Shown: positions 1 to 39,446, counted from the stretch's first letter. The stretch is DNA of 64,000 nucleotides from a virus (IMGVR_UViG_3300002460_000024:10835-74834); one strand, 5' to 3'. The notes: generated by a model from the sequence alone, not told the origin. Numbers and translations are program-made.

Positions 1-85
1 ACAACCAAAGAGGAAGTGAGAATACAGTTAGTTGCCCGATTTGTATGATATACTGGAAATATGATTGCAGCGACTAACCTCTTAA

Positions 86-162
86 TTTTTTAAAAATAGG
101 TGAGGGCCAAAAACTATGGGCGGCCTTTAGCGCCAAAGCCTGTGTTGCCCATAGCCTTAAAT
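86..162 (+). repeat. Direct repeat of 1742-1819 (right half of an attC-like site plus cargo start GTTGCCCATAGCCTTAAAT)
   Basis: Near-identical sequence of about 77 bp, ttttttaaaaataggtgagggcc...gttgcccatagccttaaat. Confidence 0.9.
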
Positions 163-178
163 CACGAAAAAATTGAGT

Positions 179-385
179 ATGAAACTAAATAGGAAAGTAA
201 CATTAGAGCCAAAGACCATTAACCTAAGAGTTGAAGATAGAATGCTTAGTATTAATTATCGAATACGGGATGACATTACAGGAATTGGATTTGGTGATAC
301 TTGGGTTAATTTTACTCCTAGCGATAAGTTGATTGAAATATTAAAAACAGAAGTAAACGAAGCAATTAAAAACTATAAAAAATAA
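179..385 (+). CDS. Hypothetical cassette protein
   Basis: ORF after GTTGCCC; ATG at 179 preferred to TTG at 173. Confidence 0.6.
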   Translation: MKLNRKVTLEPKTINLRVEDRMLSINYRIRDDITGIGFGDTWVNFTPSDKLIEILKTEVNEAIKNYKK

Positions 386-390
386 ACACA

Positions 391-744
391 ATGGGAAATT
401 TAATTAAACACGCAAAGTTTGAACTTGAACTAGCTGATATGTTCAATGAAAAAGGAGATTTTTACGGAGGCATGACCGCTGGTGCAGTTATGGAATTGAT
501 TAAGGTTTTTGAGAAACAAGGACATTCTGGTGGTTCGGCTCCAGGAGTAATTGCTTTGTTTTCAAAACTAGCAAACTATGAAATAATATTTAATAGGATG
601 AAATCAGAAATTGAAAAACAATTTGGAGTTAAAATAACAGAAGCTCCATTTACATATTTAAGTAATGTAAAAGAAAACGAACTTATTTTATCATGCCAAA
701 AAGATTACAATAATATGATAATGGCTGTATTGACCCCAAATTAA
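391..744 (+). CDS. Hypothetical phage protein (QGHSGGSA motif)
   Basis: 117-aa ORF in tandem with its neighbours. Confidence 0.7.
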   Translation: MGNLIKHAKFELELADMFNEKGDFYGGMTAGAVMELIKVFEKQGHSGGSAPGVIALFSKLANYEIIFNRMKSEIEKQFGVKITEAPFTYLSNVKENELILSCQKDYNNMIMAVLTPN

Positions 745-750
745 ATTTAT

Positions 751-960
751 ATGAGCTTGATAGAATCAACTATTTTTCACGGAACTAAATACTCATTTGA
801 TAAGAGTAAATTAATCTTCGTTGGCTTTTCAGAAAACGGTCTTAACCTTGTTTTTGAAACAGCAGAAGTTGAAATTACTATTACCGATATGAAAGACAGA
901 GAGAGGCAGTACAAGGATATTATTAATGTATGGAAAAGCTACAAAGGTGATTTATTTTAA
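751..960 (+). CDS. Hypothetical cassette protein
   Basis: 69-aa ORF, tightly packed. Confidence 0.6.
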   Translation: MSLIESTIFHGTKYSFDKSKLIFVGFSENGLNLVFETAEVEITITDMKDRERQYKDIINVWKSYKGDLF

Positions 961-1047
961 TTTTTAAAAAGCGTGCAGGCCAAATTAAAAAAAGTACTAA
1001 AGAAACGAGAGGGTGAGTTTAGCTCCTACCGAAATTGCTGGTTATTC
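957..1047 (+). repeat. Direct repeat of 4981-5071
   Basis: About 90 bp, ttaatttttaaaaagcg...gaaattgctggttattc, present in both places. Confidence 0.9.
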
Positions 1048-1048
1048 G

Positions 1049-1142
1049 GGCTAACCTCCGAGGCTTTGCGTCAGTTTTAAAAATACCAATGAAAAAAAAC
1101 AGAAAAGACATTTTTAAAATTGCGTTAAAGCCGATGTTATGC
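1049..1142. other. attC-like hairpin A1
   Basis: GGCTAAC-ctccga-GGCTTTGCGTCAGTTTTAAAAAT...ATTTTTAAAATTGCGTTAAAGCC-gat-GTTATGC. Confidence 0.7.
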
Positions 1143-1189
1143 TTAGTATTTTTTATCATTTTTTGTGCGAGGGCTTTACCTAACTAACT

Positions 1190-1627
1190 ATGAAAGACAG
1201 AAACTTACCACATTCGGACAATTGGGCGACACCGCCTTATGTTTACGATAAACTTAATGAGGAATACAATTTCAATTTCGACCCATGCCCTTTGAAGCAT
1301 GATATCACGAAATGGGACGGATTGGAAATTGAATGGAAGGAACGGAATTTTATTAACCCGCCTTATTCAAAGGATCTAAAACCAAAATTCATTTTAAAGG
1401 CGGTTGATGAAATGAAGAAAGGAAAACTTTGCGTGTTATTACTGCCCGTTTCGACAAGCACAAAACTATTCCATGATATCATCTTGGCGAACGCAACAGA
1501 GCCAGTAAAGTTTTTCAAGGGCAGAATTAAGTTTATTGGACATAATACGAAGGGAGAATTGGTAAGTAACAAAAGCCCGATGCACGATAGTATGTTAGTT
1601 GTATTCGATGGGCGGGAAAAAAAATGA
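1190..1627 (+). CDS. Phage DNA N6-adenine methyltransferase (Dam-like, short form)
   Basis: DNWATPP, FDPCP, catalytic NPPYS and GRIKF motifs. Confidence 0.85.
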   Translation: MKDRNLPHSDNWATPPYVYDKLNEEYNFNFDPCPLKHDITKWDGLEIEWKERNFINPPYSKDLKPKFILKAVDEMKKGKLCVLLLPVSTSTKLFHDIILANATEPVKFFKGRIKFIGHNTKGELVSNKSPMHDSMLVVFDGREKK

Positions 1628-1640
1628 TAAAAAATATTGA

Positions 1641-1807
1641 GCATAACTCCGAGGCTTTGCGCTGAATTTCCTCCCTGCGGGAGATTCCGCTTACCAAGGG
1701 ATGTGCGAAGGACGGAAGATTGAAAGCAGGGAGGAAATTCATTTTTTAAAAATAGGTGAGGGCCAAAAACTATGGGCGGGCCTTTAGCGCCAAAGCCTGT
1801 GTTGCCC
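1641..1807. other. attC-like hairpin A2
   Basis: GCATAAC-tccg-AGGCTTTGCGCT...AGCGCCAAAGCCT-gt-GTTGCCC with one extra C; internal perfect 15-bp IR gaatttcctccctgc/gcagggaggaaattc. Confidence 0.75.
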
Positions 1808-1849
1808 ATAGCCTTAAATGCTAGATAAATAAATTTAAATAACGATAAT

Positions 1850-2224
1850 ATGCAGTATAGTCCAAAATTGAAAAAAGCAGCAGAAGAAATAAAAGCAATA
1901 CTTACGAAGTATGATATTGCTGGTGTTGTATTATTACATACTCCGGGGCATAGTGAATACTTATTACGATTAGACCCGTCTTATTCATGTGCTAATATGA
2001 ATGAGAAAACAGGCGAAGTAAGATTAAAAGCTACCGAGGCATTGCATGGTAAAAAGAAACGTGACCAAATGTTAGAAGATACTACAAATATGATTGTTTG
2101 TTTATCGGACGTAACCGCTATGCAGGCCATGAATCTTATTGAACTTCGTAAATTACTTGAAACTAAATTTGAAATAATAACACAGGATAACGGGCATACC
2201 ACCCATGATACACAAAACAATTAA
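1850..2224 (+). CDS. Hypothetical cassette protein
   Basis: 124-aa ORF. Confidence 0.7.
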   Translation: MQYSPKLKKAAEEIKAILTKYDIAGVVLLHTPGHSEYLLRLDPSYSCANMNEKTGEVRLKATEALHGKKKRDQMLEDTTNMIVCLSDVTAMQAMNLIELRKLLETKFEIITQDNGHTTHDTQNN

Positions 2225-2234
2225 AACAAAAATT

Positions 2235-2459
2235 ATGAATGAAAAACAAATGCTACAGTCCGCAGTAAATGAACTTCGTGGATTAAGAAAACAAAACGAA
2301 ATTATGAAAGCTCGTTTAGATATGTTCGATACTATGACAGCAATATTGCACACAGATATTGCAAGGCAAAACGGAGATGCAATGCACCCTGATATTGTTT
2401 ATGAAATTGATAAATATTTAACTAACTTAGAAAAAGAAGCCACCAATGAAACCAATTAA
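2235..2459 (+). CDS. Hypothetical cassette protein
   Basis: ATG at 2235 after an A-rich leader. Confidence 0.65.
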   Translation: MNEKQMLQSAVNELRGLRKQNEIMKARLDMFDTMTAILHTDIARQNGDAMHPDIVYEIDKYLTNLEKEATNETN

Positions 2460-2703
2460 ATTTCCAGAGGTTAATAAAACCTACGCAGAAAATCAACCTG
2501 AATATTTGCCGTTGCCAGTATTTAAAGCAGATACCCCACAAGGCGAATGTGTTTCTTGCTGGAAACTTTCTTTTCGTGAAAGGATTAGAATATTATTTAC
2601 AGGCAAGTTGTGGGTAAGTCTGCTTACATTTAATAAGCCACTTACTCCTTCTTATTTTACAACGAAGAAATCGGAAGTATTAACCTTTTCAAAAAATGAG
2701 TAG
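2446..2703 (+). CDS. Hypothetical cassette protein (QPEYLPLP motif)
   Basis: 85-aa ORF overlapping the upstream gene end. Confidence 0.7.
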   Translation: MKPIKFPEVNKTYAENQPEYLPLPVFKADTPQGECVSCWKLSFRERIRILFTGKLWVSLLTFNKPLTPSYFTTKKSEVLTFSKNE

Positions 2704-2823
2704 CATTTTTAAGGGGATTTTTAAAAAAAGCATAGCCTCGGAGGTTGCCCACAAAGGCGTATGGCCAAGCACAGTAAAGCAAACGTTTTTCAGTTTGCGA
2801 TGTGGTTGCCGTTTTAAGGTTGT

Positions 2824-3090
2824 GGGCAACGGTTTCGTGTTGCCGAAGTTGATGGCGAGAAGAAGGAATAAAGGGGCCTTTAGCGCCAAAGGCAATGCGG
2901 GTTTATTCGTTCTTTAAAAGCCAGAAACAAGGTCAAACTTTCATCCCATCAATTTTGAGCAACACATTGATAGGCTAAGTTTACCGGGGGAGTTGCAGAT
3001 ACCTTTAGAAAGTTTGTCACGAAACCGATAGGCTAAATTTAGGATGAGAGGTTTGAAAATTAATTGGCGAAATTTTGTAAAAATTTAAAA
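2824..3090 (+). repeat. attC-like hairpin A3 plus leader; repeat of about 265 bp of 5227-5492
   Basis: GGGCAAC-ggtttc-GTGTTGCCGAAGTTGATGG...CCATCAATTTTGAGCAACAC-att-GATAGGC; highly similar copy at 5231-5492. Confidence 0.85.
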
Positions 3091-3116
3091 AGTAAACTAA
3101 TAAATAAACGAAAAGT

Positions 3117-3416
3117 ATGGGATTATTCAGTAAAACACCTAAAGTAGAATTGCTACCGTTAGGCCATAAAGTAGAATTAGGTACTCGATTTTGGAAAGTT
3201 TTTGAAAGCAAAGTTTATGAATGTCATGTTGCAAGACTTTCAATAAGCCGTTCTGATGAATTATTTTTATCGCAGAACCCAAGTAGTAATTATGATGAAA
3301 CAAAGTATTTAATTCATACTATTTGCGACAAGCATGTTGGTTGGTTTCACGAAGAGGAAGTGGTTAAGATGATAAAGTTTAAAACAAAAAAAGAACTTTA
3401 TGAAAGTGATAACTAA
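3117..3416 (+). CDS. Hypothetical cassette protein
   Basis: 99-aa ORF between IRs GATAGGCTAAATTTA (3027) and TAAATTTAGCCTATC (3495). Confidence 0.7.
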   Translation: MGLFSKTPKVELLPLGHKVELGTRFWKVFESKVYECHVARLSISRSDELFLSQNPSSNYDETKYLIHTICDKHVGWFHEEEVVKMIKFKTKKELYESDN

Positions 3417-3418
3417 AC

Positions 3419-3509
3419 CTTTTAGCAGCTATGCTGCCCCGCCAATTCTTTTTTTAAACAGAGCAGCCGTGTGCGGTTTTGGGTTGTGGAGAGGTAAATT
3501 TAGCCTATC
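3419..3509 (+). repeat. Cassette 3' segment, repeat of 6030-6121
   Basis: About 90 bp, cttttarcagctatgctg...taaatttagcctatc. Confidence 0.9.
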
Positions 3510-3581
3510 GTTGACGGGTATGCGTTCGGTTTTGCTCCAAAAAATAACACGGCAAAACTGACGACATACCCGATGTTACAG
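3503..3581. other. attC-like hairpin A4
   Basis: GCCTATC-gttga-CGGGTATGCGTTCGGTTTTGC...GCAAAACTGACGACATACCCG-at-GTTACAG. Confidence 0.75.
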
Positions 3582-3635
3582 GCAGTTAAAAATGGCTAAA
3601 CGAAAATTAATATAAACAACTAAAACAAAACAACT

Positions 3636-3920
3636 ATGTGTACAGTATCAATGATTGGAGACCACTTCAATGACAAATGGAAACAACCATTTTATCAGCA
3701 AACTTTTACCAACATTCCCGAAATTACGAAGGCGGAATTTGATGCACTCAAAAAGGAAGTTGAAGAAATGAAAGCATTGCTAAAGAGAGCAAAGTTATAT
3801 GACGAAAAGAATGGAGAACCGAATTGCGAAATGGATGAGAAGATGACAATGCTTAGAAAATTTGCCGAAGCAGTTGGTATAAGTTTGGACGACATCATTA
3901 AGAAACCAGATGCCAAATAG
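3636..3920 (+). CDS. Hypothetical cassette protein (MCTVSMIGD; EPNCE)
   Basis: 94-aa ORF between IRs gttacaggcagttaaaaatggcta and tagccattttttattgcctgtaac. Confidence 0.75.
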   Translation: MCTVSMIGDHFNDKWKQPFYQQTFTNIPEITKAEFDALKKEVEEMKALLKRAKLYDEKNGEPNCEMDEKMTMLRKFAEAVGISLDDIIKKPDAK

Positions 3921-3934
3921 CCATTTTTTATTGC

Positions 3935-4064
3935 CTGTAACCGGACAAGCCTTTATTTAGTGCGGGCTTAAAAGCACTAAGCAACAATTAAAGATAAAAG
4001 ATTATGGAAAGCACAAAAGTTGATAATAGCACAGAACCCGCATTGAATAAAGGCATTGTTAGCA
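3935..4064. other. attC-like hairpin A5 (contains the start codon of the next ORF)
   Basis: CTGTAAC-cggacaa-GCCTTTATTTAGTGCGGG...CCCGCATTGAATAAAGGC-att-GTTAGCA. Confidence 0.8.
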
Positions 4065-4240
4065 GCAGTACGGCATTAGAACCGAAAGTTGTTAATCACG
4101 GGAATGTGTTTGGAACAAAGAACTGGTACACATTTTATTGCCCACATTGTGGAAGCCAAATAACAAACAGAAGTGCAAATTGCGAAGGAAGTTATCCAAT
4201 TAAAGGATGTAATGGGGCAATAAAATGGAACGAGAAGTAG
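4004..4240 (+). CDS. Small zinc-ribbon protein
   Basis: CPHCG and further Cys residues; N-terminus encoded by the hairpin arm. Confidence 0.7.
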   Translation: MESTKVDNSTEPALNKGIVSSSTALEPKVVNHGNVFGTKNWYTFYCPHCGSQITNRSANCEGSYPIKGCNGAIKWNEK

Positions 4241-4321
4241 TATTGCTGCTAACGGCTGCGGAATAACAGCAGTTTCTTTAGTACGTTTTAATTTTAAGGT
4301 GGGATTTTAAAAATAAATTAT

Positions 4322-4651
4322 ATGAATGGAAAAAGTTTAAAAGTTCAGAAAGCTGAAAAGTTTGTAGATGATTTTATTAAATCAGAAGGGCATACGCCCA
4401 CCTACAATGATGTAAAAGAATACATGGGCTTTAAGAGCAATGCTCAAGCCTATGGTATTTGTGCAAAATTCAGAGATAAAATGAAGGCAATTACTAAAAA
4501 CGAAAAGAGAATACATATTGAGATTGATGATGAAAACCAAATTATGGTTAGCCGAAAAGGATTTAACAACTACGAGGCACTTGGAGTTTTAGAGGCTACC
4601 GTTTTGATGGTTAAAAATGAAATATTAATAAGTATAAACAAGGGTAAATAA
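4322..4651 (+). CDS. Protein with a LexA-like winged-HTH N-terminal domain
   Basis: FIKSEGHTPTYNDVKEYMGFKSNAQAY resembles LexA DBD (G.PPT..EI....GF.S); no peptidase domain. Confidence 0.6.
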   Translation: MNGKSLKVQKAEKFVDDFIKSEGHTPTYNDVKEYMGFKSNAQAYGICAKFRDKMKAITKNEKRIHIEIDDENQIMVSRKGFNNYEALGVLEATVLMVKNEILISINKGK

Positions 4652-4653
4652 TT

Positions 4654-4791
4654 ATGAATCAGTTAGACATAATAAAAGAAGAACTCGAAGATTGCTATGA
4701 TTTATGGAGTAGATTTAGTTGTGACTGCCTTCATTATTATATGCTATATCTTGAAAAAAGGAAACGTCAATTAGAAATCATAAACAATTAA
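4654..4791 (+). CDS. Small hypothetical protein (45 aa)
   Basis: Hand translation MNQLDIIKEELEDCYDLWSRF...; below the ORF-track cutoff. Confidence 0.5.
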   Translation: MNQLDIIKEELEDCYDLWSRFSCDCLHYYMLYLEKRKRQLEIINN

Positions 4792-4795
4792 ATGT

Positions 4796-4975
4796 ATGTA
4801 CTACCATAACACTACTAAAAACCTATTAAACGAATCAGAGTTTGAAGATTTCTACTGGAACTACGAGGAAGGGGATTCAATCTTTAAAACGGAACGTGGA
4901 AATGCAATACTTATACCAATGACCTACGAGGAGGTAATTGAAAAGGCAAAGCATGATAATATAGTCGAAGAATAG
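4796..4975 (+). CDS. Small hypothetical protein (59 aa)
   Basis: Hand translation MYYHNTTKNLLNESEFEDFYWNY... Confidence 0.55.
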   Translation: MYYHNTTKNLLNESEFEDFYWNYEEGDSIFKTERGNAILIPMTYEEVIEKAKHDNIVEE

Positions 4976-5226
4976 TTCTTTTAATTTTTAAAAAGCGGGA
5001 TGGCCAAATTAAAAAAAGTACTAAAGAAACGAGAGGGTGAGTTTAGCTACTACCGAAATTGCTGGTTATTCAGTGTTAGCCTGAGTGCCATGCTAATAGG
5101 TGAACGCAAAGCTAAACGAACAAGGAGTTGGCTTATTCCGCAGCCGTTAGCCCGAATCGGGTTGGCGCAACAAAGTAAAGTCCTCCATTTTAGAGGACGA
5201 TTTGTTGCCTGTTGTGGTGGCATTCG

Positions 5227-5492
5227 GGCTAACGGTTTCGTGTTGCCGAAGTTGATGGCGAGAAGAAGGAATAAAGGGGGCTGTGCGGCCAAAGGCTTGC
5301 GGGTTTATTCGTTCTTTAAAAGCCAGAAACAAGGTCAAACTTTCATCCCATCAATTTTGTGCAACACATTGATAGGCGAAGTTTACCGGGGCCGTTGCAG
5401 ATACCTAAAGAAAGTTTGTCACGAAACCGATAGGCTAAATTTAGGATGCGAGGTTTAAAAATTAATTGGCGAAATTTTGAAAAAATTTAAAA
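5227..5492 (+). repeat. attC-like hairpin A7 plus leader; repeat of 2824-3090
   Basis: GGCTAAC-ggtttc-GTGTTGCCGAAGTTGATGG...CCATCAATTTTGTGCAACAC-att-GATAGGC. Confidence 0.85.
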
Positions 5493-5501
5493 TTTAAATA
5501 T

Positions 5502-5762
5502 ATGAGTACAGAAAACATAGAACAATGCCCAGAGTTTCCATACTTCGGAGCCTCTTATCCTGATGCAAGATGTGTAAGTGGATATTTACACGATATGGAT
5601 AGCTGTGATGAACATGGTAATTTATATGTAATGAGTGAAAGTCACCCATGCCCATTTTGTAATACAAAAGAATTTTTAAAAAACCAACGGGACAATGAGG
5701 CTGATATGACCAAAGTGAAAAAATGGATGGAAAATATTAAAAACGAATATAGCTATAAATAA
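5502..5762 (+). CDS. Cys-rich hypothetical cassette protein
   Basis: CPEFPYFGASYPDARC...PCPFCN. Confidence 0.7.
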   Translation: MSTENIEQCPEFPYFGASYPDARCVSGYLHDMDSCDEHGNLYVMSESHPCPFCNTKEFLKNQRDNEADMTKVKKWMENIKNEYSYK

Positions 5763-5764
5763 TT

Positions 5765-6037
5765 ATGAAAGACTTATTAAAGCTCCTATGGGAAAAGAAA
5801 TGGGAAGCCGATGAAGAATATACTAAAAATGCAAATAGATATTCAGAAGGCAAAAGTGATGCTTTTTTATTTTGCATAAATGAAATTCAACATCCAAAAT
5901 GTAAAGCGGATATTAAAGTTTTGGTGAATGGAAGGGTGGGTTATACTACCTCTGTTGTGGCTCATTCGGGGGGTATATACCCAGTATGGTTTGATGGTGG
6001 CGTGGAGTTTGTAAATGCTAAAGACGTAACCTTTTAA
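5765..6037 (+). CDS. Hypothetical cassette protein
   Basis: 90-aa ORF. Confidence 0.65.
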   Translation: MKDLLKLLWEKKWEADEEYTKNANRYSEGKSDAFLFCINEIQHPKCKADIKVLVNGRVGYTTSVVAHSGGIYPVWFDGGVEFVNAKDVTF

Positions 6038-6206
6038 CAGCTATGCTGTACCGCCAATTCTTTTTTTTAACAGAGCAGCCGTGTGTGACTTTGGGTTGTG
6101 GGGAGGTAAATTTAGCCTATCATATATCTGTATTTATCACAATGCAACATATTTAAAAACAGTACGTTAAATACGGTATATTTCAAACAATGAAAAAACG
6201 ATTGTA

Positions 6207-6602
6207 ATGAATATAGATAGATGGTCAGAGCAATTCGAGAAGGATATGCAAGTAATTCGTAATAGCCAAAGCACCCGTGATAATTATGGGTGCCAGGTTA
6301 AAATGTTTTTGGCATACTTTGAAAAACTCAACTACACTTCTCCTGAAAGAATTAATGCGGAAAAGATAAAAGATTATTTGCTTACAAAAATTAGCAATAA
6401 CAATCAGCGTCACGCCCATTCTGCTATAAAACATTTCTATAAAATTACAGTTCACCAGGAGCTTAAGTTTAGATTTATTCAATATGCGGAAAAAGAGAAG
6501 AGGCATCCCATAATTTTAAGCAGGGAGGAAACTAAAAGATGGTTTGAGGCGTGTACTAATGTAAAGCATAAGTGCATGGCATTGAAACCCAATTTACACT
6601 AA
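6207..6602 (+). pseudogene. Truncated tyrosine recombinase (integron-integrase-like N-terminal SAM-like domain)
   Basis: SQSTRDNY..VKMFL..F, SAIKHFY, HPIILSREE...NVKHKCM; stops just before the expected box I (Y..GLR) with no catalytic domain following. Confidence 0.8.
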
Positions 6603-6625
6603 ACAAAAAGCAAATAATTTAGATT

Positions 6626-6874
6626 ATGAATACAGATGTAAAAAAAGAGGTTAAAACAATAGAAGTGATTATACCACCAGACACAGACGAGGCAGTTCAT
6701 ATAATAAGATTAATTTTCCCCAATGGGTATAATGTTGCAATGACCCCAAATGCTTTAAAGGAGGTTATAAATGAGCATTCCGAGAAATATGGGGTTATAA
6801 TTGATGATGATATGAATAGAGAGAAATTTGATATGATTTTAAAAGAAAGACGCCTCTCCGCTTCTAAGGATTAG
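6626..6874 (+). CDS. Hypothetical protein
   Basis: 82-aa ORF. Confidence 0.6.
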   Translation: MNTDVKKEVKTIEVIIPPDTDEAVHIIRLIFPNGYNVAMTPNALKEVINEHSEKYGVIIDDDMNREKFDMILKERRLSASKD

Positions 6875-6967
6875 TCCTGTCTATTTCTTATTATTTCAAT
6901 TCCATCGTATAGCTCTTGAAAGAATAATTCGGGGAGGATATGCACATACTTAAATATAATTTTTACG

Positions 6968-7282
6968 TCATCTCCCTTCTCCTCTATCAAATCCGCATAT
7001 TACATATTCAGCCGTGCCAATATCTATTTTATCCTCCTCAGAAATAAATAGAATATCCTCGTAAGGATATGAGTATATGAATTCATGGAGAAGAGTTTTT
7101 GTAATCGTGTTGTAGTCGGGCCTCTCTTCAATAATTTTTAGATTATTAAAACGAATATTATGACTTTTACTTACAGAATCGAACGAATACTCGACAATGC
7201 TATCTGGGAATAAATTGCATATATTCTTTAAATAATTGTATATCAGTAATTTACTCGTCATCATGGTCATCGTAGGCGTCAA
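6968..7282 (-). CDS. Hypothetical protein
   Basis: ORF; true start probably an internal Met. Confidence 0.6.
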   Translation of the reverse strand: MTPTMTMMTSKLLIYNYLKNICNLFPDSIVEYSFDSVSKSHNIRFNNLKIIEERPDYNTITKTLLHEFIYSYPYEDILFISEEDKIDIGTAEYVICGFDRGEGR

Positions 7283-7508
7283 ACTTTTTACGAGCCCGTA
7301 ACTTGTCCTGGATAGTTACCACTCCGGCAGTAATTCCAACAACCAGAGAGACAAAAGAAAGTAAATGAAGCCCCACAACCACCCAGGAGTCAAAATTACC
7401 AAGCCATCCGAATAATTGTGTCACCCCATAAATCCCTGCTGATATTACCCAAACAAGCAATCCATTTCCTCCTGGGGGAGTATGATTAACATGATCTATT
7501 ACATTCAT
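7251..7508 (-). CDS. Putative holin/membrane protein
   Basis: Two hydrophobic segments and a charged C-terminal tail; next to the spanin. Confidence 0.55.
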   Translation of the reverse strand: MNVIDHVNHTPPGGNGLLVWVISAGIYGVTQLFGWLGNFDSWVVVGLHLLSFVSLVVGITAGVVTIQDKLRARKKFDAYDDHDDE

Positions 7509-7861
7509 TTTCTTTCGTAGATTTTACCCTGTGGACTTTTTACTTTTGTGGGCTGCATCCACCCTAAGGCATCTTTAAGCAACGCAGTTATAGCGTCAGG
7601 GCATAACCCTATTACAACAGAATATATTGAAAACCATTCATATTTTATCAACTTGGTAGTCAGTTCTGGCCTTATATTAAACAAGATGCATAGAGCAACA
7701 GCCAGTGGAACAGAATGCAAAAGCCTAATCCAATTGTCCTTTAAATAGAACCAAAGGCTTCCTTTTACTGGTGAAGCATGACTTTCTCGTTTTCGGGTCT
7801 TATAGTAGCCCCAATTAGCTATGAAAATTCCTAAGAATAGATAAATGAAACTGTAAAGCAT
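7505..7861 (-). CDS. Putative holin/membrane protein
   Basis: Three hydrophobic segments and a basic C-terminus. Confidence 0.55.
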   Translation of the reverse strand: MLYSFIYLFLGIFIANWGYYKTRKRESHASPVKGSLWFYLKDNWIRLLHSVPLAVALCILFNIRPELTTKLIKYEWFSIYSVVIGLCPDAITALLKDALGWMQPTKVKSPQGKIYERK

Positions 7862-7957
7862 AATTTCTAAGTTTAGATCAAATTTAATAAAAAAAAATCA
7901 AATTACTCTTAAGACGCTCTGCTCCTACTGCGCTAGTTATATTATAGGTATAAATGC

Positions 7958-8527
7958 TCATTTTGGGGCGACGCGATTAATGCTGATGTATGGTGGAATT
8001 AGGCCGAGTCCTATCTTAAGTCGTAGTTTTTTAAAAATAAATATCGTCAAAACGAATACACCAATCCCAATACATACCCAACTTTGCCAGAAGGAGAGCC
8101 ACTTTTTCTTAATAACTACCGGAGGCGAATATTCAGAATGCCAATGTTCTTTTATTTCTTGGTAGTGATGCTCAAACCATTGAAGTTTTATTTTTACTTC
8201 GGCACACTCTCCGTCAACGGTTAAATGCCCATCTTTTACTTCTACTGTAGCTTTATTTCCTCTTTTGTCTATTTCTGTAACCTTAAAATCCTTACACGGT
8301 ACTGAATCTTTAAAATGAATCTCAAATGAATCTCTTGGGATTAAAACAACACTATCCCGTGGAACAATCGAGTCTTTTTTAATCACTATTATACTATCCT
8401 TAATTATTTTTGAGCAATGGGTAGAGCACCATTTGGCCGTATTGCAGCTACCAAGAAAAAAAATAGCAACTACTACCAATATAATTTTTATTATCACTAA
8501 CTCTAAAACTACTTTTTTTGCTCTCAT
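7958..8527 (-). CDS. Putative unimolecular spanin (lipoprotein with C-terminal TMD)
   Basis: Signal/lipobox FFLGSC, beta-rich middle, C-terminal TM WVCIGIGVFVLTIFIFKK. Confidence 0.6.
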   Translation of the reverse strand: MRAKKVVLELVIIKIILVVVAIFFLGSCNTAKWCSTHCSKIIKDSIIVIKKDSIVPRDSVVLIPRDSFEIHFKDSVPCKDFKVTEIDKRGNKATVEVKDGHLTVDGECAEVKIKLQWFEHHYQEIKEHWHSEYSPPVVIKKKWLSFWQSWVCIGIGVFVLTIFIFKKLRLKIGLGLIPPYISINRVAPK

Positions 8528-8528
8528 A

Positions 8529-8750
8529 TCAGGGTATTTCTATTTGTACTAAATCTTCTTTAGTCTTTTGAATTTTAGGTTGTTTTTTTAAGTACACATT
8601 TGCATCTTCCCAACCCCTTGCGCCTATTAAATCAGCATTCACAACCCATTTGCCATCTTTGGTTTCAAAGTATGGAATTTGTCGATGCTTTAATTTAAGC
8701 ATTTCGTTAATATTATCTATTTCTGTTTTATCTATTTCTACAAATGTCAT
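8529..8750 (-). CDS. Hypothetical protein
   Basis: 73-aa ORF overlapping the upstream gene. Confidence 0.7.
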   Translation of the reverse strand: MTFVEIDKTEIDNINEMLKLKHRQIPYFETKDGKWVVNADLIGARGWEDANVYLKKQPKIQKTKEDLVQIEIP

Positions 8751-9895
8751 AGGCCCATTGCTGTTAAAAGTGTTTCAAAATCAGATTTAAAATTAGCATA
8801 ATCTGTATCGTTAAACGTTCCAGTAGTAATCATTTGCAGGTACTGTTCTCTAGCGGTAAGTATAATCACTGATCCTGGCCCAATTCCTAATCCATGTCCG
8901 GTTATCTCTATGCCATTTTCGCTCGAGGAGGGCTTGGCTGTTGGTGTAACGGTGTCATTACTATAAACATTTGTTGATGCTGCGCCAGTTCTTACTGCGC
9001 CAAATAATCCTGTAGTAATAACCGGGCCATCGTTAGTGCCAGAATCATTTACACAACTGTTATTATCACCAGCACTATTCATTATAAGTCCTAGATAAGA
9101 TGTGGCTAAATCAGTACAACCAATATCCCAGCCAACTGCATCATTTGTATTGCTCCATATAAAAACTCCAACACTATTTAAAGATATTTCAGCAACAGCA
9201 TTTGGTATAATTCCAGTTCTTGTAAATTTAGTTAAAGCATTTCCTATCCTACCACCACCCTCCAAACAATTAGCATCCACAAAACCAACATTAGTAATTG
9301 GGTAATTACCTATAACCGTTACAGAACCATCTAAATTAAAATAAAAAGGAACCATTTTGGCCGCTGCATCTGCACCAAATACACAAATCTCTAAATGCAC
9401 TATTTTTGATCTATATGAGTTAGTTACCGCTGCGTCACGATCAAACCTATTGGCGATATTTTCTATCTGAGCCTGCGTATAAATTACGTCCACTAATAAA
9501 CCCCCATTATCAAAAACCCCCTCAACGTATGTTTTTACTTCGGGCCGATTCGCAACAGCAATAAAATTTATTTTTGTTTCAGTATCAAATCCACCATCGT
9601 TTGTAGCCGTCAACGCTATTGTCCAATCGCCAACTTTTTCAACCAATAATGTAGGATTTTGAGCAGTTGAAAAAACAACAACAACACTATCAGGATCAGT
9701 ATATGACCAACTCCATGAAGTAGGTGTATTTGTTGAGGTGTCTGTAAATGTTACGGTTTCACCCCATTCGGGAATTAGATCATTAACAGTAAAGTCAGCT
9801 ACCGGCGGATCAACCGCATTAACCAATCGTCTACGCTGCCTTGTTTTAAGGGGCTTATCCTTACGGACAAATCGTAAATTCTTTATTCCCCACAT
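8747..9895 (-). CDS. PKD-domain virion/receptor-binding protein
   Basis: PPVADF...VTFTDTSTNTPTSWSW...QNP...LTATN PKD signature; beta-rich C-terminal domain. Confidence 0.75.
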   Translation of the reverse strand: MWGIKNLRFVRKDKPLKTRQRRRLVNAVDPPVADFTVNDLIPEWGETVTFTDTSTNTPTSWSWSYTDPDSVVVVFSTAQNPTLLVEKVGDWTIALTATNDGGFDTETKINFIAVANRPEVKTYVEGVFDNGGLLVDVIYTQAQIENIANRFDRDAAVTNSYRSKIVHLEICVFGADAAAKMVPFYFNLDGSVTVIGNYPITNVGFVDANCLEGGGRIGNALTKFTRTGIIPNAVAEISLNSVGVFIWSNTNDAVGWDIGCTDLATSYLGLIMNSAGDNNSCVNDSGTNDGPVITTGLFGAVRTGAASTNVYSNDTVTPTAKPSSSENGIEITGHGLGIGPGSVIILTAREQYLQMITTGTFNDTDYANFKSDFETLLTAMGL

Positions 9896-10590
9896 TACCC
9901 TACATAAATTTCATACCTAACGGTAGCTGGATCAGCCCCATTTACTTCAATAATACGAGCATTTGTAATATTTGCCTTTCCAACAATATCAAAAGGATTC
10001 TCATCCACCACTAAAATACCAGTTGTGGTAGTAACGGCCACACCTGTTTCAAGGTAATTTATATCCCCACCTACCGTAGTGCCCATTAAAATCGGAGTTC
10101 TTGGATCTGTTGCCATATTATACCCTGGTCGTGTTTTTGTTATTGTGCATCTAGCCAAAGACGAAAACTCAATTACCACATAAGGAACATCGGCAGTTAC
10201 CGTGAAGGCTCCGGAACCAGTACTGGCTCCAGTAACTAAATCCTTCAATAATATCGCCGTGGCAGTTTGCAAGGATGAGTTAACCTGATACTCACTTGTA
10301 TTAAGTTGGGCCATTAAAGCTGCTGCAGTATTGGTTTGGGTCGTTACCCAGTCCTGATTAAAATATACAAAGTCTCCAGGTTGTCCCGGTAGTCCATATA
10401 GTTGTTGAGCCTCAAGTGAAGTAGCATATACCCTTATTCCCAATGCGGTAACCTGAGAAGCCACTGCAATTACAGCACCGGTCCATAGTTCGTTTTGGGT
10501 TGTTGTAAAGGCAGTTGAAGTTGTAGGGGTTAGTGATCCACTAAGGATTGCGTCTCCTAAAGATGCGCTTGATTTATCAATGAAGGCCAT
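9895..10590 (-). CDS. Putative structural protein
   Basis: T/A/G-rich, 231 aa, own promoter. Confidence 0.6.
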   Translation of the reverse strand: MAFIDKSSASLGDAILSGSLTPTTSTAFTTTQNELWTGAVIAVASQVTALGIRVYATSLEAQQLYGLPGQPGDFVYFNQDWVTTQTNTAAALMAQLNTSEYQVNSSLQTATAILLKDLVTGASTGSGAFTVTADVPYVVIEFSSLARCTITKTRPGYNMATDPRTPILMGTTVGGDINYLETGVAVTTTTGILVVDENPFDIVGKANITNARIIEVNGADPATVRYEIYVG

Positions 10591-30400: not shown

Positions 30401-33400
30401 CTTAAAACCTTCTCTCCTTTAATTTTCTTTATCCTTTCTGAACCGATTACCTGTTTGGCTGCACCCCTTTGAGCTCCCTTATATCCTTGGGTGGCTCTGG
30501 TGAATTTGCGACGTCGTTTTTGGCCTTTTGGAGATTCATTATATCTTTTTATGGCTCTTTGTACTGATAATAACACCGCTTCTGGTGTCATTTTATTCCA
30601 AAGTGCCATTATCTGACCACCCTGGCCCGATAAACTCATCCTTTCTCCCACCGCTTCGGATAACTTTACCACCTTATCTAAAAGTTTAGCCCTATCCTTT
30701 CCTTCGGTCTTGGCCGCTTCCTGACCATAATAATCCATCAAGACTAATCCTAATGTATTCGCCATTAAATTATCTTGAATTGATACATTTCGGTCCATGG
30801 CTAATTCTTCTGCCTCTTCAACTCCATATTCGTCAATAAACCCCTGAGCTAATTGAACTGATTCTTTATTAGTTACCTCTTGGTAAAATAATGGGTCTTT
30901 ATCCAAAAGGGCTTTTACTTCTTTCTTTCCTTCGTTTTTACGGGCAGTCTTACTTAACCCACGCTCCTTTTTCTTAAATTTCTTTCCACTGGCCTCTTTA
31001 ATCTGAACCGCCATTTGTTTTTCAACCAACTTTTTATTTTCATCGGAGAGGTCCTTGTACTGTTTTGGGCCCTTATCTGAATTAAGCCATTTAATTGCAT
31101 CAGCAATGCCATCGATCACTTTACCTCCGGCCTCTACGGTTTGGGCTGCTATCTCTATTGCTGCTGCATACCAATCGTTTGTGGTAATATCTATTTCTAC
31201 ATCATTACCATTCTCATCCTTAATGGTAAGGGTTTTCTTTTTAGGTGCCAGCTTCCTGATATTATCAGCTATCTCCTTTGTGGCTTTAGTGGCGACGCCA
31301 ACTTTGGGCTCCTTTGTTTCACGTGAAACCTCCTTAACCGGCTCTTTTGTCTTCTTTACTGGTTCACTTTTCTTGCTTTTAATATTTACACCCGTAACCT
31401 TTTTATACTGATCCTCTAGCGCCCTTAATGTAAGTTCGCGCTGCTTCTTGTACTGGTGGGGTCCACCGCCATATTTTTCTATAAAGGCAATAATTTCCTT
31501 TACTTTAACACCCGCTTGTTGTGCTATGGTATCTAATGGAAGGGCTTTCGAAGAAAACCACCCAACAGCCGACACAGATCCGTCTTTTACTTTGTTTGGC
31601 TCTCCCTCCTGGTTATAATCTTTCGCCTGCACTCCGTTTTGAGAAACAGCCTCAAATATTTTATTTTCTGTATCCACTTCATCCCGAATTCTTACTTTCT
31701 CGTTCTCCCAGGCCTCTTTAATTTGGGTAGGGTTGGTAGAAGTTTCGGCTATCTCGTCAGCCTTGTCGGTTTCAGCCATTGGGCCTTCTTCCACACCCGC
31801 CTCCAATCTTTCCTGATCGTACTTTTTAATCTTCGAAGATTCAAGATAAACCGTTCCTTTTGGGGGTGTTTTTTTAGTTTTGACGCGATTTTTGGTAACA
31901 AACTTTTGAGTTTCTACCTTATTGCCGGCAGCATCACGCCTAACAATCTCGTCGCCCTCCCGAACATACCTTACTTTACTATCAGAAGATTCGAACACTG
32001 TACCTTGTTTAAGTTCAGCAAACTTGGCCGATACCTCATCCATGGTAATATCCTCACCGTCATAATCCTTCATTTGCCCCTGTTCGTCAACATAGAACAC
32101 AGAGTTTAATAACTCCCTTTCTTCTGGAGTGGGTAATGGGTCACCCCTATCAGTAAAATGGGTATCTATTAATTCCGCTTCTTTTTGGTTCCTTTCGGAT
32201 TCGGACAATACCTCTTCCTCTGAAAGAGTGGTTTCCGGATAATCTATTTCTTCCGGGAGAACCACTCCACTTGGCTCAGTCGTTTCTCCGCTTGTTCCTT
32301 CGTTAAGTTTGGCTGGCTCAAGGCTTTGTTCGTTTTGGACATCACTTGATATCCCTGTTTTGTTTTCACTATCATATAATTCGGTTATTTGTTTTAATAC
32401 TGTTTCATCATTGATGACGCTAAAGTTGGTGCCTCCCGATCTAATATCGGCCATCACTTCCGGCTTTGCCATCTCAGCCATAAATATCTCTTTTGGATAA
32501 GAATTCTTACCTATAAAATACATAGGCGCCTTACCAGCCACCACTTCCTGAACATTCTTCTCCATATCCTTAATCTGGATATCATAAGTTTTCAACAGGG
32601 TTAGGTCCGTGGTATTAGCCTTTAATTTCTCCAGAGCATTAATATCGTCGAGCTTACTCATAATAACATGCTTCTGAGGGGCACTTAAATTTGCTGGTAT
32701 CTCTCTGCCCTTCAAAAATGCAAACTCCAATATCCCCATAGCTTCCAAATACCCTGGTTCATCTATATCTCCCCTACTCTTCAAAAGCTCAAGCCCCGCT
32801 TTGTTTTGCTTATAGGTTTTTTCCATATCGGGACCCTCCATTAGCATATCATACATGGTGGCCAATTGATACTTTGATTCTGTGCCGGTATTCTTTGCGG
32901 TGAGGTCTGGTGCTGCCATTCCGAAAGACATTGCAAACCCTACCATAAATTCATTGGTTCCCGTAGGACTGTTTAATCTATCAAGGAAGGTTTGGTATGG
33001 GTTATGCGACGCGATTCTTCCCTGGTCCACTTCCTGCAGACCCTCCGTTATACCCTCTCCGGGTGCCTTAATCAGTGCAGATTTGAACCCTCTGGCCTTA
33101 CCTAATTTCGTAAAGGCAAACATCATCTGCCCTATATTTATTGCTAAATAATTTAGATTTTGGGTAAAGGTGTCGGCAGTGTTTTTGGCGGCAACCTCTA
33201 CGGCTACCCCATTTTGAAGTTGTGAATTAAAATCAGAACCCGCTTCAATAGTGGCATCAAACACCGTATTTACAACACCTGCAGTAATTCCAGAAGCTAC
33301 CGTTCCTTCTATCCCTGCACCAACCACTCCGCCAGCCGCACCACCAGTTACTAGTGATCCACCTATCATAGCTATCATCATTGGCGCCGAAGGAACCATA

Positions 33401-36273: not shown

Positions 36274-36305
36274 GTTGCTATACTTTTTTCAAAGATAGTA
36301 ACTTT

Positions 36306-36710
36306 TTAGAACTTTATAACTCGGTGTGGGTGATAGTAAAACACGGTATCATACATATCATAAGGGGGAAAATGAAAAGGCTGTGAAACAACTTGCCCAG
36401 TTCCATCAAGTACAGCATCATAAAATGTAGGGTTCCATTTTCCATAAATCTTTTTAGATGGATAAGACTCTAACCAGATAGCATCTTCGGAACAGCTTAA
36501 AATATGCCCACCTTGCAAGTAATAGGTGTATATCATTTGCCGATTAATGGTTATTTCAACAGAGGAGTCGGTTTTATAAGCTTCTATTATTGACCCATAA
36601 TTAATAAATATACTGTCATATTTTAATATGCACCTTATATTCTCACTTTTAAAGGACTGGGCCTGAATTAAATTAAATCCAAGAATCAGTAAAAAAATCA
36701 ATTTTTTCAT
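36306..36710 (-). CDS. Secreted/periplasmic hypothetical protein
   Basis: Signal peptide MKKLIFLLILGFNLIQAQ. Confidence 0.65.
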   Translation of the reverse strand: MKKLIFLLILGFNLIQAQSFKSENIRCILKYDSIFINYGSIIEAYKTDSSVEITINRQMIYTYYLQGGHILSCSEDAIWLESYPSKKIYGKWNPTFYDAVLDGTGQVVSQPFHFPPYDMYDTVFYYHPHRVIKF

Positions 36711-36774
36711 TCTTCTGTTTTTAGTATAACGCTATTGTAGTATTGGTTATTGTTGGGACGACGCAATTAATCTC

Positions 36775-37170: not shown

Positions 37171-37298
37171 AACAAATATACGCTTTTTATTAAATAACAC
37201 AATAAATCAAATATTTTTAGGTTATTTACTACGCACTCCGTTCTAGGGGTGTTTTAAGCTAACGGAATAGAGGTCGGCAGGCCCCTATTTATTTTAAA

Positions 37299-38292: not shown

Positions 38293-38359
38293 TCTACAAG
38301 TATTTGGTAGCGGCGATATTTAATGGTTGCCGCTACCAAATTTAACTAAAAACAAATTG

Positions 38360-38635: not shown

Positions 38636-38649
38636 ACAAAAAAACAATT

Positions 38650-39435: not shown

Positions 39436-39446
39436 TCTCGTCGCCC

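Follow-up and report, generated by a model that had tools for sequence, protein, structure and literature searches.

The viral DNA analysed here very probably carries a phage-borne, integron-like gene-cassette platform, whose recombination mechanism is inferred by analogy with integrons. In the window, a stretch of 64,000 nucleotides taken from a 74.8-kb record, nine units occupy positions 72–6121 and are bounded by coding-strand sites of the form RYYYAAC, hairpin, GTTRRRY. An earlier note, made from the sequence alone, had read this region as an integron-like array with inverted ORFs; that central reading is largely supported and survived its own refutation tests on breakpoints and arm covariation. 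The core motifs of the seven hairpins it described, and the last GCCTATC, lie at exactly the positions claimed. Its extent required correction, as the array begins upstream of the window, at about G000 10025.

Sites were searched for with a scanner pattern of A[AT]C, a 3–8 nt spacer, arms scoring at least 14, a 1–4 nt spacer and G[TA]T. The scanner recovers five of the seven noted hairpins, with left spacers of 5–7 nt and right spacers of 1–3 nt; it misses 1641–1807, which scores 12.5 and so falls below 14, and 4247–5081, which exceeds its size limit. Only eight matches reach the threshold in the whole record, six of them on the + strand from 1053 to 6222, and block-shuffled array DNA yields 0.05 matches. 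The sites of the window are as follows.

72–150, + strand: S1, degenerate attC-like site (5′ core GACTAAC 72–78, 3′ core GTTGCCC 144–150)
1049–1142, + strand: S2, attC-like hairpin (GGCTAAC 1049–1055, GTTATGC 1136–1142; scanner score 16; covariance model E 5.9e-5)
1641–1807, + strand: S3, attC-like (GCATAAC 1641–1647, GTTGCCC 1801–1807; scanner score 12.5)
2824–2975, + strand: S4, attC-like (GGGCAAC 2824–2830, GATAGGC 2969–2975; scanner score 16)
3503–3581, + strand: S5, attC-like (GCCTATC 3503–3509, GTTACAG 3575–3581; scanner score 16)
3935–4064, + strand: S6, attC-like (CTGTAAC 3935–3941, GTTAGCA 4058–4064; scanner score 17; covariance model 86 bits)
4247–5081, + strand: S7, probable long-loop site (TGCTAAC 4247–4253, arms 4261–4276 and 5055–5071, GTTAGCC 5075–5081)
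5227–5377, + strand: S9, attC-like (GGCTAAC 5227–5233, GATAGGC 5371–5377; scanner score 16; covariance model E 0.055)

S1, missing from the earlier list, is without a left arm, and its right half is a copy of 1743–1819. S3, which folds at −34.4 kcal/mol on the + strand, contains a nested inner hairpin at 1663–1741, and S4 and S9 are about 90% identical. S6, 130 nt long and assigned to the 120–129-nt size class, was among the sequences used to build the covariance model, which bears on its 86 bits; its loop contains the ATG of ORF 4004–4240. The arms of S7, checked by hand, form 16 pairs with one G·T and one bulged G in the right arm, and the spacers are 7 and 3 nt. Its loop encloses ORFs 4322–4651, 4654–4791 and 4796–4975, for which the Freya_6 site at 462–754, with a whole ORF inside its loop, provides a precedent; a competing pairing exists between 4248–4266 and 5133–5151. 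When both strands were folded, the + strand was more stable at eight of the nine window sites, which fits the G·T mismatches noted on that strand. The last core, GCCTATC, occupies 6115–6121. No hairpin had been noted after it; a scanner match does exist at 6119–6222, formed by an inverted repeat (6122–6142 / 6200–6220) that overlaps the recombinase ATG, and its relevance is doubtful because in L039, a close relative, 650 nt separate the two arms.

With these sites, the following cassettes were delimited.

1–77, + strand: 3′ end of cassette c1, which starts upstream of the window with the site at G000 10025–10118
78–1054, + strand: cassette c2, ORFs 173–385, 391–744 (Tad3-like, PF25185, E 8.5e-15) and 751–960
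1055–1646, + strand: cassette c3, hairpin and ORF 1190–1627 (Dam-type DNA adenine methylase, PF05869, E 1e-17)
1647–2829, + strand: cassette c4, ORFs 1850–2224, 2205–2459 and 2446–2703
2830–3508, + strand: cassette c5, ORF 3117–3416; GAT/ATC cores
3509–3940, + strand: cassette c6, ORF 3636–3920
3941–4252, + strand: cassette c7, ORF 4004–4240, with its start inside the hairpin
4253–5232, + strand: cassette c8, ORFs within the S7 loop
5233–6120, + strand: cassette c9, adjoining the recombinase, ORFs 5502–5762 (weak match to the restriction-alleviation protein Lar) and 5765–6037

The 240-aa ORF of c1 ends at 77, its stop codon overlapping the 5′ core, and the c1 site is a covariance-model match at L001 10025–10118 (E 4e-6). 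Unit ends across the window pair over 18–29 nt: 29 nt in c3 (1136–1164 / 1619–1647), 24 nt in c6 (3575–3598 / 3918–3941) and 18 nt, including two G·T, in c4 (1801–1818 / 2813–2830); the ends of c7 are GTTAGCAGC / GCTGCTAAC. Antisense copies of the predicted circle junction are present in c5 (3018–3041, 24 nt, its own junction), c8 (5133–5157, 25 nt) and c9 (5420–5443, 24 nt). They are perfect over 24–25 nt against the junction expected on circularising between A and C of the core, and match the actual array junctions over only 6, 19 and 5 nt, respectively. The 96-nt trailer of c2 is repeated at 4976–5071, and c8 holds an inner hairpin without an ORF at 5146–5233.

The site family was examined in 28 viral contigs whose relatives of the window's truncated recombinase are full-length. 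Upstream of the recombinase these loci hold 80 + strand sites, or 4.9 per 10 kb, against 0.3–0.55 per 10 kb elsewhere and 0.06 in shuffles. Site structure is conserved and sequence is not. Compensatory changes occur in 16 of 21 stem pairs, and the proposed covariation check of the arms came out positive: 85.1% of cells pair, compared with 62.4% after shuffling and 41–49% with the partner slid, and the stem covariation score is 0.529 versus 0.171 for shuffled stems, none of 500 shuffles scoring as high. The 6 nt after the GTT of one site are a perfect complement of the 6 nt before the AAC of the next in 28 of 53 cases, with a five-of-six match in 8 of 53; random pairs reach a perfect match in 12 of 1948 cases, and a site's own two cores do so in 1 of 89. 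Of 89 sites, 72 fold more stably on the + strand, which has 1.8 G·T pairs per site versus 0.6 on the − strand; the values reported for integrons are 1.24 and 0.39 (Nivina 2016, PMC5027507). Since the scanner rewards + strand pairing and chose the sites behind the pairing, core-complementarity and G·T counts, the absolute pairing and G·T figures are somewhat inflated. An extra base in the right arm had been described for most hairpins; this is true of most sites in the window and not of the wider family (24 bulges left, 18 right), whose polar marks are the G·T pairs and a longer 5′ spacer.

Inverted gene polarity, as proposed for the window, also holds in the relatives, where 48 of 53 units code on the strand with the AAC-first hairpin. 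Of 50 units, 25 have their first ATG within the upstream hairpin, and together these counts place the hairpin as the 5′ leader of its gene.

Gene gain and loss in related genomes occurs at the 5′ AAC, as the cassette reading had predicted. Ten cultured Polaribacter phage Freya isolates, otherwise 99.4–100% identical, differ only in whole units, and every junction lies within AAC. Freya_10 carries units B, C, D and E; Freya_9 is without E, Freya_5 without D and E, Freya_2 without C to E, Freya_1 without B to E and Freya_8 without C only, and Freya_6 carries a new, different unit. Compared with the window, L039 has a different unit between C5233 and C6121, replacing the whole of c9, and similarity between L012 and L017 stops directly after an AAC. 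As far as genome comparison alone can show it, the exchange point is the AAC at the 5′ end of the coding-strand hairpin site, and units have been gained, lost or replaced both at the recombinase-proximal site and between internal sites.

Because the Freya and L039 breakpoints fall at the 5′ AAC, a hairpin is usually inherited together with the gene that follows it. The suggestion that each hairpin is the travelling leader of its gene is thus upheld by these genomes and by the ATG-in-hairpin data, but not by L007 and L041, which have in common a 640-nt body (94% identity) that begins at the GTT core, extends to the following AAC and is flanked on either side by unrelated hairpins. This pair indicates that a hairpin does not always stay with its gene; exchange can also take place at or near the 3′ core, or the hairpins were replaced in some other way.

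The same breakpoints bear on the alternative that the hairpins act in RNA or in regulation (as 5′ leaders, stem-loops for processing or stabilisation, or PeSL-like modules), with homologous recombination between the repeated modules shuffling the genes and the recombinase doing something else. We regard this as unlikely. Breakpoints in Freya and L039 have just AAC in common, with different preceding core bases and no flanking homology; each unit has its own complementary core pair, which homologous exchange neither creates nor keeps; the arms vary in sequence with pairing kept, and so are poor substrates for such exchange; and nothing would explain the recombinase and conserved site with which the array ends. 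This alternative does account for hairpins on the sense strand, tolerance of G·U-type pairs and frequent start codons in an A-rich loop, and the phage encodes Erf-like and RecE-like recombination proteins. Copies of one hairpin, leader and trailer also flank different ORFs in the window (2828–3113 / 5231–5515 and 3416–3509 / 6028–6121), and therefore a second process, probably homologous recombination, is needed beside cassette exchange. Inspection of the sequence found no T run after the stems, so they are not intrinsic terminators; an additional RNA-level role is not excluded.

Shuffling of PeSL modules is thought to depend on sequence homology. These promoter-plus-stem-loop modules of T4-type phages, reportedly described by Arbiol et al. 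in 2010, resemble the present arrays in placing stem-loops between small accessory early genes of a hyperplastic phage region whose gene content varies among relatives. The present system differs in that its breakpoints share just AAC, the cores of each unit are matched, and the arrays come with a recombinase that has a conserved target site.

The array ends at two further features.

6121–6206, + strand: attI-like site (C ATATATCTGTATTTATCAC...), the constant flank on the right-hand side of the crossover; the recombinase ATG lies 85 nt further on
6207–6602, + strand: truncated tyrosine recombinase gene, about 124 codons of N-terminal SAM-like domain and 7 foreign codons

The gene had been called IntI-like. 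It is a tyrosine recombinase at the array end, but of Xer/XerA-like type and without the roughly 43-residue IntI insertion. This insertion is said to be necessary for handling folded attC sites. Full-length relatives have 267–312 residues and score 115–178 bits against an integron-integrase cut-off of 265; the best structural match by sequence is archaeal XerA (PDB 5HXY). With the catalytic domain absent in the window, this copy of the system is probably either frozen or trans-dependent. The gene of L039, the closest relative, is 99% identical and likewise broken, which makes activity in this lineage doubtful.

An attI-like site near the recombinase, inferred earlier, was found repeatedly: at 18 loci or more, 50–73 nt separate the last RYYYAAC from the ATG of the recombinase gene, and a conserved motif of ATATGTA type comes after the RYYYAAC, and positions 6122–6172 are conserved in L039. 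Its constancy weighs on a second alternative, in which the recombinase is a lysogeny integrase or dimer resolvase, adjacent to the array only through genome organisation, and another enzyme moves the units. The Xer/XerA-like sequence would suit such a role, and Bartlau et al. (PMC8776804) infer a temperate lifestyle from the integrase of Freya. We give this alternative very little credence, as the recombination-active junction stays 47–85 nt from the start codon across distant relatives (28–60% protein identity), the recombinase-side end of the nested Freya series falls exactly at that junction, and no other recombinase was consistently linked to the arrays. A dual role of the enzyme is not excluded.

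One partly overlapping paper was found in the earlier literature. Qi et al. 2023 (PMC9892861) described attC-type sites in phages beside orphan DNA methylase genes, as in the present arrays, including two sites in divergent directions in the Polaribacter phage P12002L, and regarded them as integrase-less parts of integrons, probably acquired from bacteria; IntI1 recombined one predicted site. They draw no link to a phage Xer-type recombinase, an attI-like site, inverted polarity or inter-isolate cassette differences. P12002L contains at least eight sites of exactly the present design. That the array is likewise a fragment of a classical host integron (CALIN), mobile through host IntI, agrees with the consensus cores and with the IntI1 result, yet it is highly improbable. 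In about 20 of 28 loci, an array of at least two sites immediately precedes the small recombinase gene that the phage itself encodes, most with the conserved attI-like site; 48 of 53 units have the opposite gene polarity to integron cassettes; arrays change between phage isolates of one enrichment campaign; and the recombinase family occurs almost exclusively in viral DNA, with only two matches among 185,579 species genomes, both on metagenome-assembled-genome contigs.

The phage platform nevertheless has much in common with integrons (class 1; sedentary chromosomal, e.g. Vibrio cholerae). Both have RYYYAAC / GTTRRRY cores, complementary within each unit, imperfect hairpins that keep structure and not sequence, a crossover in the AAC of the better-folding strand with a G·T bias on that strand, site lengths of 50–140 nt peaking near 124 nt, and an array end formed by a fixed site next to the 5′ end of a tyrosine recombinase gene whose reading direction leads away from the array. 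In contrast to integrons, the phage genes are inverted, so that it is the coding strand that folds and each hairpin precedes its gene; start codons are often within the site; the recombinase is shorter; extrahelical bases occupy no consistent arm, polarity being marked by a 5′ spacer of commonly 5 nt versus 1 nt; the system is phage-carried; and GAT/ATC cores are tolerated in the window.

Integration of CTX phage at dif by XerCD is a case of an Xer-type recombinase acting on folded single-stranded phage DNA. It offers a precedent for single-strand exchange at a folded hairpin by an Xer enzyme, and XerCD and archaeal XerA are likewise short enzymes without arm-binding or IntI-specific domains. 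Those enzymes, however, serve to insert entire phage genomes or to resolve chromosome dimers at a single dif site, and are not known to build gene-cassette arrays with individual hairpin sites.

On the cassette reading, the mobile unit runs, on the coding strand, from C through a 4–7 nt spacer, an imperfect hairpin, a 1–3 nt spacer, GTTRRRY and one or a few small genes to RYYYAA, and units are stacked head to tail upstream of the small Xer/XerA-like recombinase gene, ending at the attI-like site, which precedes the start codon of that gene by 50–85 nt. If integrons are a guide, the coding strand would fold when single-stranded, and the recombinase would bind the core duplex beside the asymmetric spacer and cut between AA and C. 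One strand would then be exchanged with the attI-like site or another hairpin, replication resolving the product; excised units would be expected as circles, none of which has been observed. Since every gene is oriented towards the recombinase gene, transcription cannot come from a promoter of the integron type at the attI end and must start upstream or at the genes' own promoters. Many start codons were seen in the hairpin loop.

A Bacteroidota host is plausible and not shown for this record; the cultured carriers are Polaribacter phages, and one match is a contig of a Flavobacterium metagenome-assembled genome. Arrays of the relatives are rich in orphan DNA methylases, DNA-modification enzymes making up 13 of 109 ORFs and Lar one. 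With orphan DNA methylases, Tad3-like and Lar-like proteins, the cargo of these phage arrays looks like a set of counter-defence genes.

Small plus-strand ORFs fill the first 6.9 kb of the window as a block that starts upstream of it, and all array ORFs of the window lie on this strand. The record itself is 74.8 kb long and linear, with a CheckV completeness estimate of 66%. The remainder of the window is phage-like, encoding Erf-like and RecE-like recombination proteins, a DnaB-like helicase, GroEL and a 2939-aa ORF. The stretch was present nearly whole in sequencing runs labelled groundwater and soil metagenome. Its assignment to a Bacteroidota phage, made in the earlier note, is not established for this record. 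A blastn search with positions 1-7000 against GenBank phages gave no match, a tRNA/tmRNA scan of the window found none, and no Rfam family matched anywhere in the window at gathering thresholds; the IntegronFinder attC model is not part of Rfam.

All core motifs that the earlier note had located in the array were found exactly there, and with DNA energy parameters the plus strand folded better than the minus strand at eight of nine window sites. A scanner for the pattern A[AT]C, spacer, paired arms, spacer, G[TA]T returned eight hits over the entire record, with six on the plus strand within 1053-6222, compared with 0.05 in block-shuffled array DNA. Isolated matches outside the array were seen at window 9029-9185 and whole-record 2724-2818, both on the minus strand, the strand of the local genes. 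The array starts at about 10025 of the whole record, upstream of the window, and a degenerate site lies at 72-150; both were missing from the earlier list. A scanner match at 6119-6222, directly 3' of the last GCCTATC, was not counted as a hairpin site because its arms lie 650 nt apart in L039, a 2.1-kb metagenome contig 99% identical to the window recombinase fragment. Besides AAC/GTT cores, one family of window units uses ATC/GAT. In the window, complementarity between the start of a unit and the inverse core at its other end extends over 9-29 nt, reaching 29, 24, 18 and 17 nt in four units, far past seven bases. An intrinsic terminator role of the stems was ruled out, as no T-run follows them.

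The site at 4247-5081 has standard geometry with three ORFs in its loop, and a rival perfect 19-nt pairing exists. Its precedent is a site at 462-754 in Polaribacter phage isolate Freya_6 (locus L044), where a 16-bp stem with two G.T pairs closes a loop of about 265 nt containing a complete 72-codon ORF. Genes can therefore occupy hairpin loops.

Upstream of the window, the plus-strand genes at whole-record 3700-10000 are separated by another palindromic motif, GACG..ATTAAT..CGTC (examples at 3745, 4360, 5320, 8290 and 9975), and a serine recombinase ORF lies at 4487-5197 in the same pre-array region. These motifs may represent a second, unrelated site system or an operator set.

The same site design recurs in 28 viral loci that carry full-length relatives of the window recombinase. 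There, 80 sites lie on the recombinase strand directly upstream of the gene, a density of 4.9 per 10 kb versus 0.3-0.55 elsewhere and 0.06 in shuffles. All follow one design, in which RYYYAAC is followed by G and about 4 nt, then a long stem containing G.T pairs, roughly 1 nt, and GTTRRRY. Thus the attC criterion of RYYYAAC and GTTRRRY cores flanking an imperfect palindrome is met, with little or no variation in AAC and GTT across 34 aligned sites. The length distribution has a sharp maximum at 120-129 nt (35 of 89 sites) and another peak at 75-89 nt; a loose pattern, GCACAAA...CAAATG, is common to the loops of the long class. A covariance model built on the 124-nt class (R1) recovered only four window sites, penalising long or short loops, and our own scanner was used instead. 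An exact 17-mer from a window unit trailer matched two viral contigs, both by chance in coding DNA.

In the alignment of 34 sites, compensatory changes were observed in 16 of 21 pairs. Paired cells reached 85%, versus 62% in shuffles and 41-49% with slid partners, and the covariation score of the arms was 0.53 versus 0.17 in shuffles. The attC criterion of conserved structure without conserved sequence is met by this covariation, with the reservation that the sites were chosen by a pairing-based scanner. Site statistics in general carry a selection bias, since the scanner favours plus-strand pairing.

Across 89 sites, 158 G.T pairs were counted versus 54 A.C pairs, or 1.8 G.T pairs per site on the folding strand versus 0.6, and the plus-strand fold was more stable in 72 sites (Wilcoxon p = 6e-11). 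A corresponding G.T bias of 1.24 versus 0.39 has been reported (Nivina 2016, PMC5027507). The attC criterion of a better-folding, G.T-richer recombined strand is therefore met with some scanner bias; the strand of the hits themselves, 80 plus versus 9 minus, provides an independent check. The extra base in the right arm described in the earlier note holds for most window sites but not for the wider family, where bulges are distributed 24 left to 18 right over 89 sites and extrahelical bases show no consistent arm bias. The consistent asymmetry of the family lies in the spacers, 5 nt versus 1 nt in 36 of 89 sites. The six bases that follow GTT are the perfect reverse complement of the six preceding the AAC of the next site in 28 of 53 consecutive pairs, versus 12 of 1948 random core pairs. 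By analogy, such matched successive cores are the signature that integron-type exchange would leave.

Three independent lines of evidence, all drawn from sequence, place the inferred exchange in the AAC at the hairpin 5' end on the coding strand. Seven natural junctions among isolates of Polaribacter phage Freya and two between L039 and the window put the exchange in or beside AAC. Freya_1 to Freya_10 carry the same site design upstream of a 271-aa integrase; the isolates come from Bartlau et al. (PMC8776804), where the array design is not mentioned. They are near-identical apart from whole units, with 99.4-100% identity across the array flanks compared.

Unit content of Freya isolates relative to Freya_10
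Freya_10 (reference): units B, C, D and E
Freya_9: E missing
Freya_5: D and E missing
Freya_2: C to E missing
Freya_1: B to E missing
Freya_8: only C missing
Freya_6: a different unit

Every Freya junction lies within AAC, and the bases preceding it differ. The nested series is what would be expected from serial insertion at, or deletion from, the recombinase-proximal site. Nested array lengths (up to B, C, D or E) were noted in Freya loci L030/L034, L031, L032, L033 and L042-L045. The whole of the 44.0-48.9 kb size range of the Freya species appears to come from the array.

In L039, the left flank equals the window up to AAC at 5231-5233 and the right flank equals it from 6122. Between them lies a wholly different unit with its own hairpin, ORF and matched cores (GTTATGTT / AACATAAC). 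The earlier note had named breakpoints unrelated to the AA|C positions in related genomes as grounds for refutation; the Freya and L039 junctions fall at AAC, and the proposal passed this check.

Its further claim that the genes are inverted, each with the hairpin as its 5' leader, agrees with unit polarity, the third line of evidence: coding runs along the hairpin strand, towards the recombinase gene, in 48 of 53 units, and in 25 of 50 the upstream hairpin contains the first ATG. Cutting at the GTT end would therefore behead the gene. The classical polarity, with a G|TT crossover and the hairpin travelling with the upstream ORF, was ruled out by the Freya and L039 junctions together with these start codons.

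As a fourth clue to the exchange point, internal to the window, cassettes c5, c8 and c9 each contain a perfect antisense copy, 24-25 nt long, of a junction that would arise only by circularising the unit at A|C. The copies lie at 3018-3041, 5133-5157 and 5420-5443, each with a second copy of the 3' core (GATAGGC or GTTAGCC). They could serve for site masking or as an alternative, fully paired partner.

A counter-example is provided by two viral loci, L007 and L041, which share a 640-nt body at 94% identity from the GTT core to the next AAC, while the hairpins on either side are unrelated. Hence hairpins are also replaced, or exchange also takes place at the 3' core or close to it. Two window units have the same hairpin, leader and trailer around different ORFs, and such shared frames point to a putative further layer of shuffling driven by homology. 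In a groundwater run, one Logan contig links 3006 to 5409 through 40 identical letters of a repeated leader; this join may be a variant without 2.4 kb or an assembly path through the repeat. Logan loose ends at 5197 and 5232 correspond to a copy of the same sequence upstream of the window. Neither observation carries information on unit circles or site-specific rearrangement. Mechanistically, we infer only that the site would recombine as folded single-stranded DNA, with one strand exchanged and replication resolving the product.

The attI-like site claimed near the recombinase start was recovered as a constant flank. In at least 18 loci, 50-73 nt separate the recombinase ATG from a last RYYYAAC that matches the GTTRRRY of the last hairpin. 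After this core comes a conserved ATATGTA-type motif, AT(A/T)(A/T)AATATGTA. The window counterpart is ATC at 6119-6121 with ATATATCTGTAT after it, 85 nt upstream of the ATG; L039 conserves positions 6122-6172. Gain, loss or replacement of units abuts this site both in Freya and between L039 and the window, which supports the claim; actual insertion there is inferred. L039 also contains a 616-nt insert (573-1189) between the attI-like site and the recombinase ATG, in which a GIY-YIG-like N-terminus and then a second SAM-like recombinase N-terminal fragment were read by eye.

The window recombinase ORF (6207-6602) retains only the N-terminal SAM-like domain of a tyrosine recombinase. Its full-length relatives are 267-312 aa long with all catalytic residues present, and they score under every NCBIfam cut-off. 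Their best family match was the XerA-type model NF040815 (146-204 bits, cut-off 220), versus 115-178 bits in two separate stretches for the integron-integrase model TIGR02249 (cut-off 265). The closest solved structure by sequence was archaeal XerA (5HXY). Aligned to VchIntIA (2A3V), family profile positions 10-179 correspond to 9-181 and positions 199-274 to 244-318. In this alignment VchIntIA has 62 residues where the family has 19, and the IntI-specific insertion is therefore absent. The lysine-to-HxxR distance in the relatives is 64-69 residues. The IntI-like recombinase of the earlier note is thus a tyrosine recombinase, but with the insertion absent and scores below cut-off it does not meet the IntI criterion, a judgement made without a phylogeny.

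Relatives were found in 28 IMG/VR loci, versus two contigs among 185,579 species genomes, both from metagenome-assembled genomes, and the family is nearly confined to viral DNA. A tblastn search against cultured phages gave no hit above 35% identity.

The window recombinase gene stops after about 124 codons, running into a short module repeated at whole-record 7495-7630. A leader together with the first five codons (MNTDV...) is repeated before three small ORFs (window 6578-6645; whole record 7495-7530 and 7568-7630), and the truncation point is the exact start of one copy of the preceding module, GGCATTGAAACCCAATTTACACTAAA. This suggests that the truncation may result from deletion by recombination between these repeats. 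The L039 recombinase keeps its C-terminal half, with about 36 codons lost, including the first catalytic arginine, and a stop codon present. Because the window gene is truncated and no second recombinase copy was found anywhere in the record, the window array is probably frozen, or dependent on a recombinase from a co-infecting relative.

The system is an integron in function and layout, with function inferred in the absence of any experiment, circle or single-stranded intermediate, but two defining features are missing: an enzyme of the IntI clade, and cassettes in which the ORF precedes its attC and is read from the attI side. The arrangement of recombinase gene, attI-like site and folding-strand polarity is that of a classical integron. 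The folding strand likewise reads towards attI, with AAC on the 5' arm and more of the G.T pairs, and each cassette begins with sequence complementary to its own site's inverse core. In contrast to integrons, the genes are inverted: the units that code towards the recombinase do not form promoterless ORF-then-attC cassettes read from an attI-end promoter.

Clusters of attC sites without integrase have been described in phages, including Polaribacter phage P12002L, with HattCI and Infernal hits and two reported attC sites, and IntI1 can recombine such a phage site (Qi et al. 2023, PMC9892861). That study drew no link between these sites and a phage-encoded recombinase, an attI-like site, inverted polarity or isolate differences. 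In P12002L (31118-40948, minus, early-gene strand) we found eight or more sites built to this design, scattered among early genes and four genes for a DNA methylase or Mom, without a recombinase gene. A full-text literature search yielded nothing further on this system.

Three window cassette products were identified, one of them by a weak match; the others are unidentified small proteins.

Identified cassette products of the window
391-744, plus strand: Tad3-like protein
1190-1627, plus strand: Dam-type methylase
5502-5762, plus strand: Lar-like protein (weak match)

PHROGs searches of the cassette proteins returned almost all as unknown. Among 109 array ORFs of the relatives, 12 DNA methylases, one Mom and one Lar were predicted, along with PAPS-reductase, radical-SAM, RNA-ligase and antirepressor-type domains. 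Judged by these domain matches, the cargo has an anti-restriction flavour, in agreement with the methylases of phage attC clusters in Qi et al. 2023 (PMC9892861).

We consider it rather probable, though far from settled, that a distinct class of integron belongs to phages that infect Bacteroidota and perhaps other hosts. In it, folded coding-strand hairpins would be recombined by a short Xer/XerA-like enzyme that lacks the IntI domain, and each gene would thereby carry its own 5' leader along. The resulting platform would collect and reshuffle counter-defence genes, as a viral mirror image of the bacterial integrons that bank defence systems, and would be active within a single bloom, to judge by the nested Freya isolates. 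In the current view, integrons are bacterial, and recently also archaeal, devices defined by IntI. If true, a widespread phage-borne counterpart with a simpler Xer-like enzyme would extend cassette capture to hosts beyond those known, would help to judge whether folded single-stranded sites really require the IntI-specific domain, and would explain the homology-free swapping of small phage accessory genes, many of them anti-restriction. With ten cultured Freya isolates and a Polaribacter host, the idea is directly testable. Together, the enzyme and its sites might be developed into a compact tool for single-strand recombination, and the sites offer a route to mining unknown counter-defence genes.
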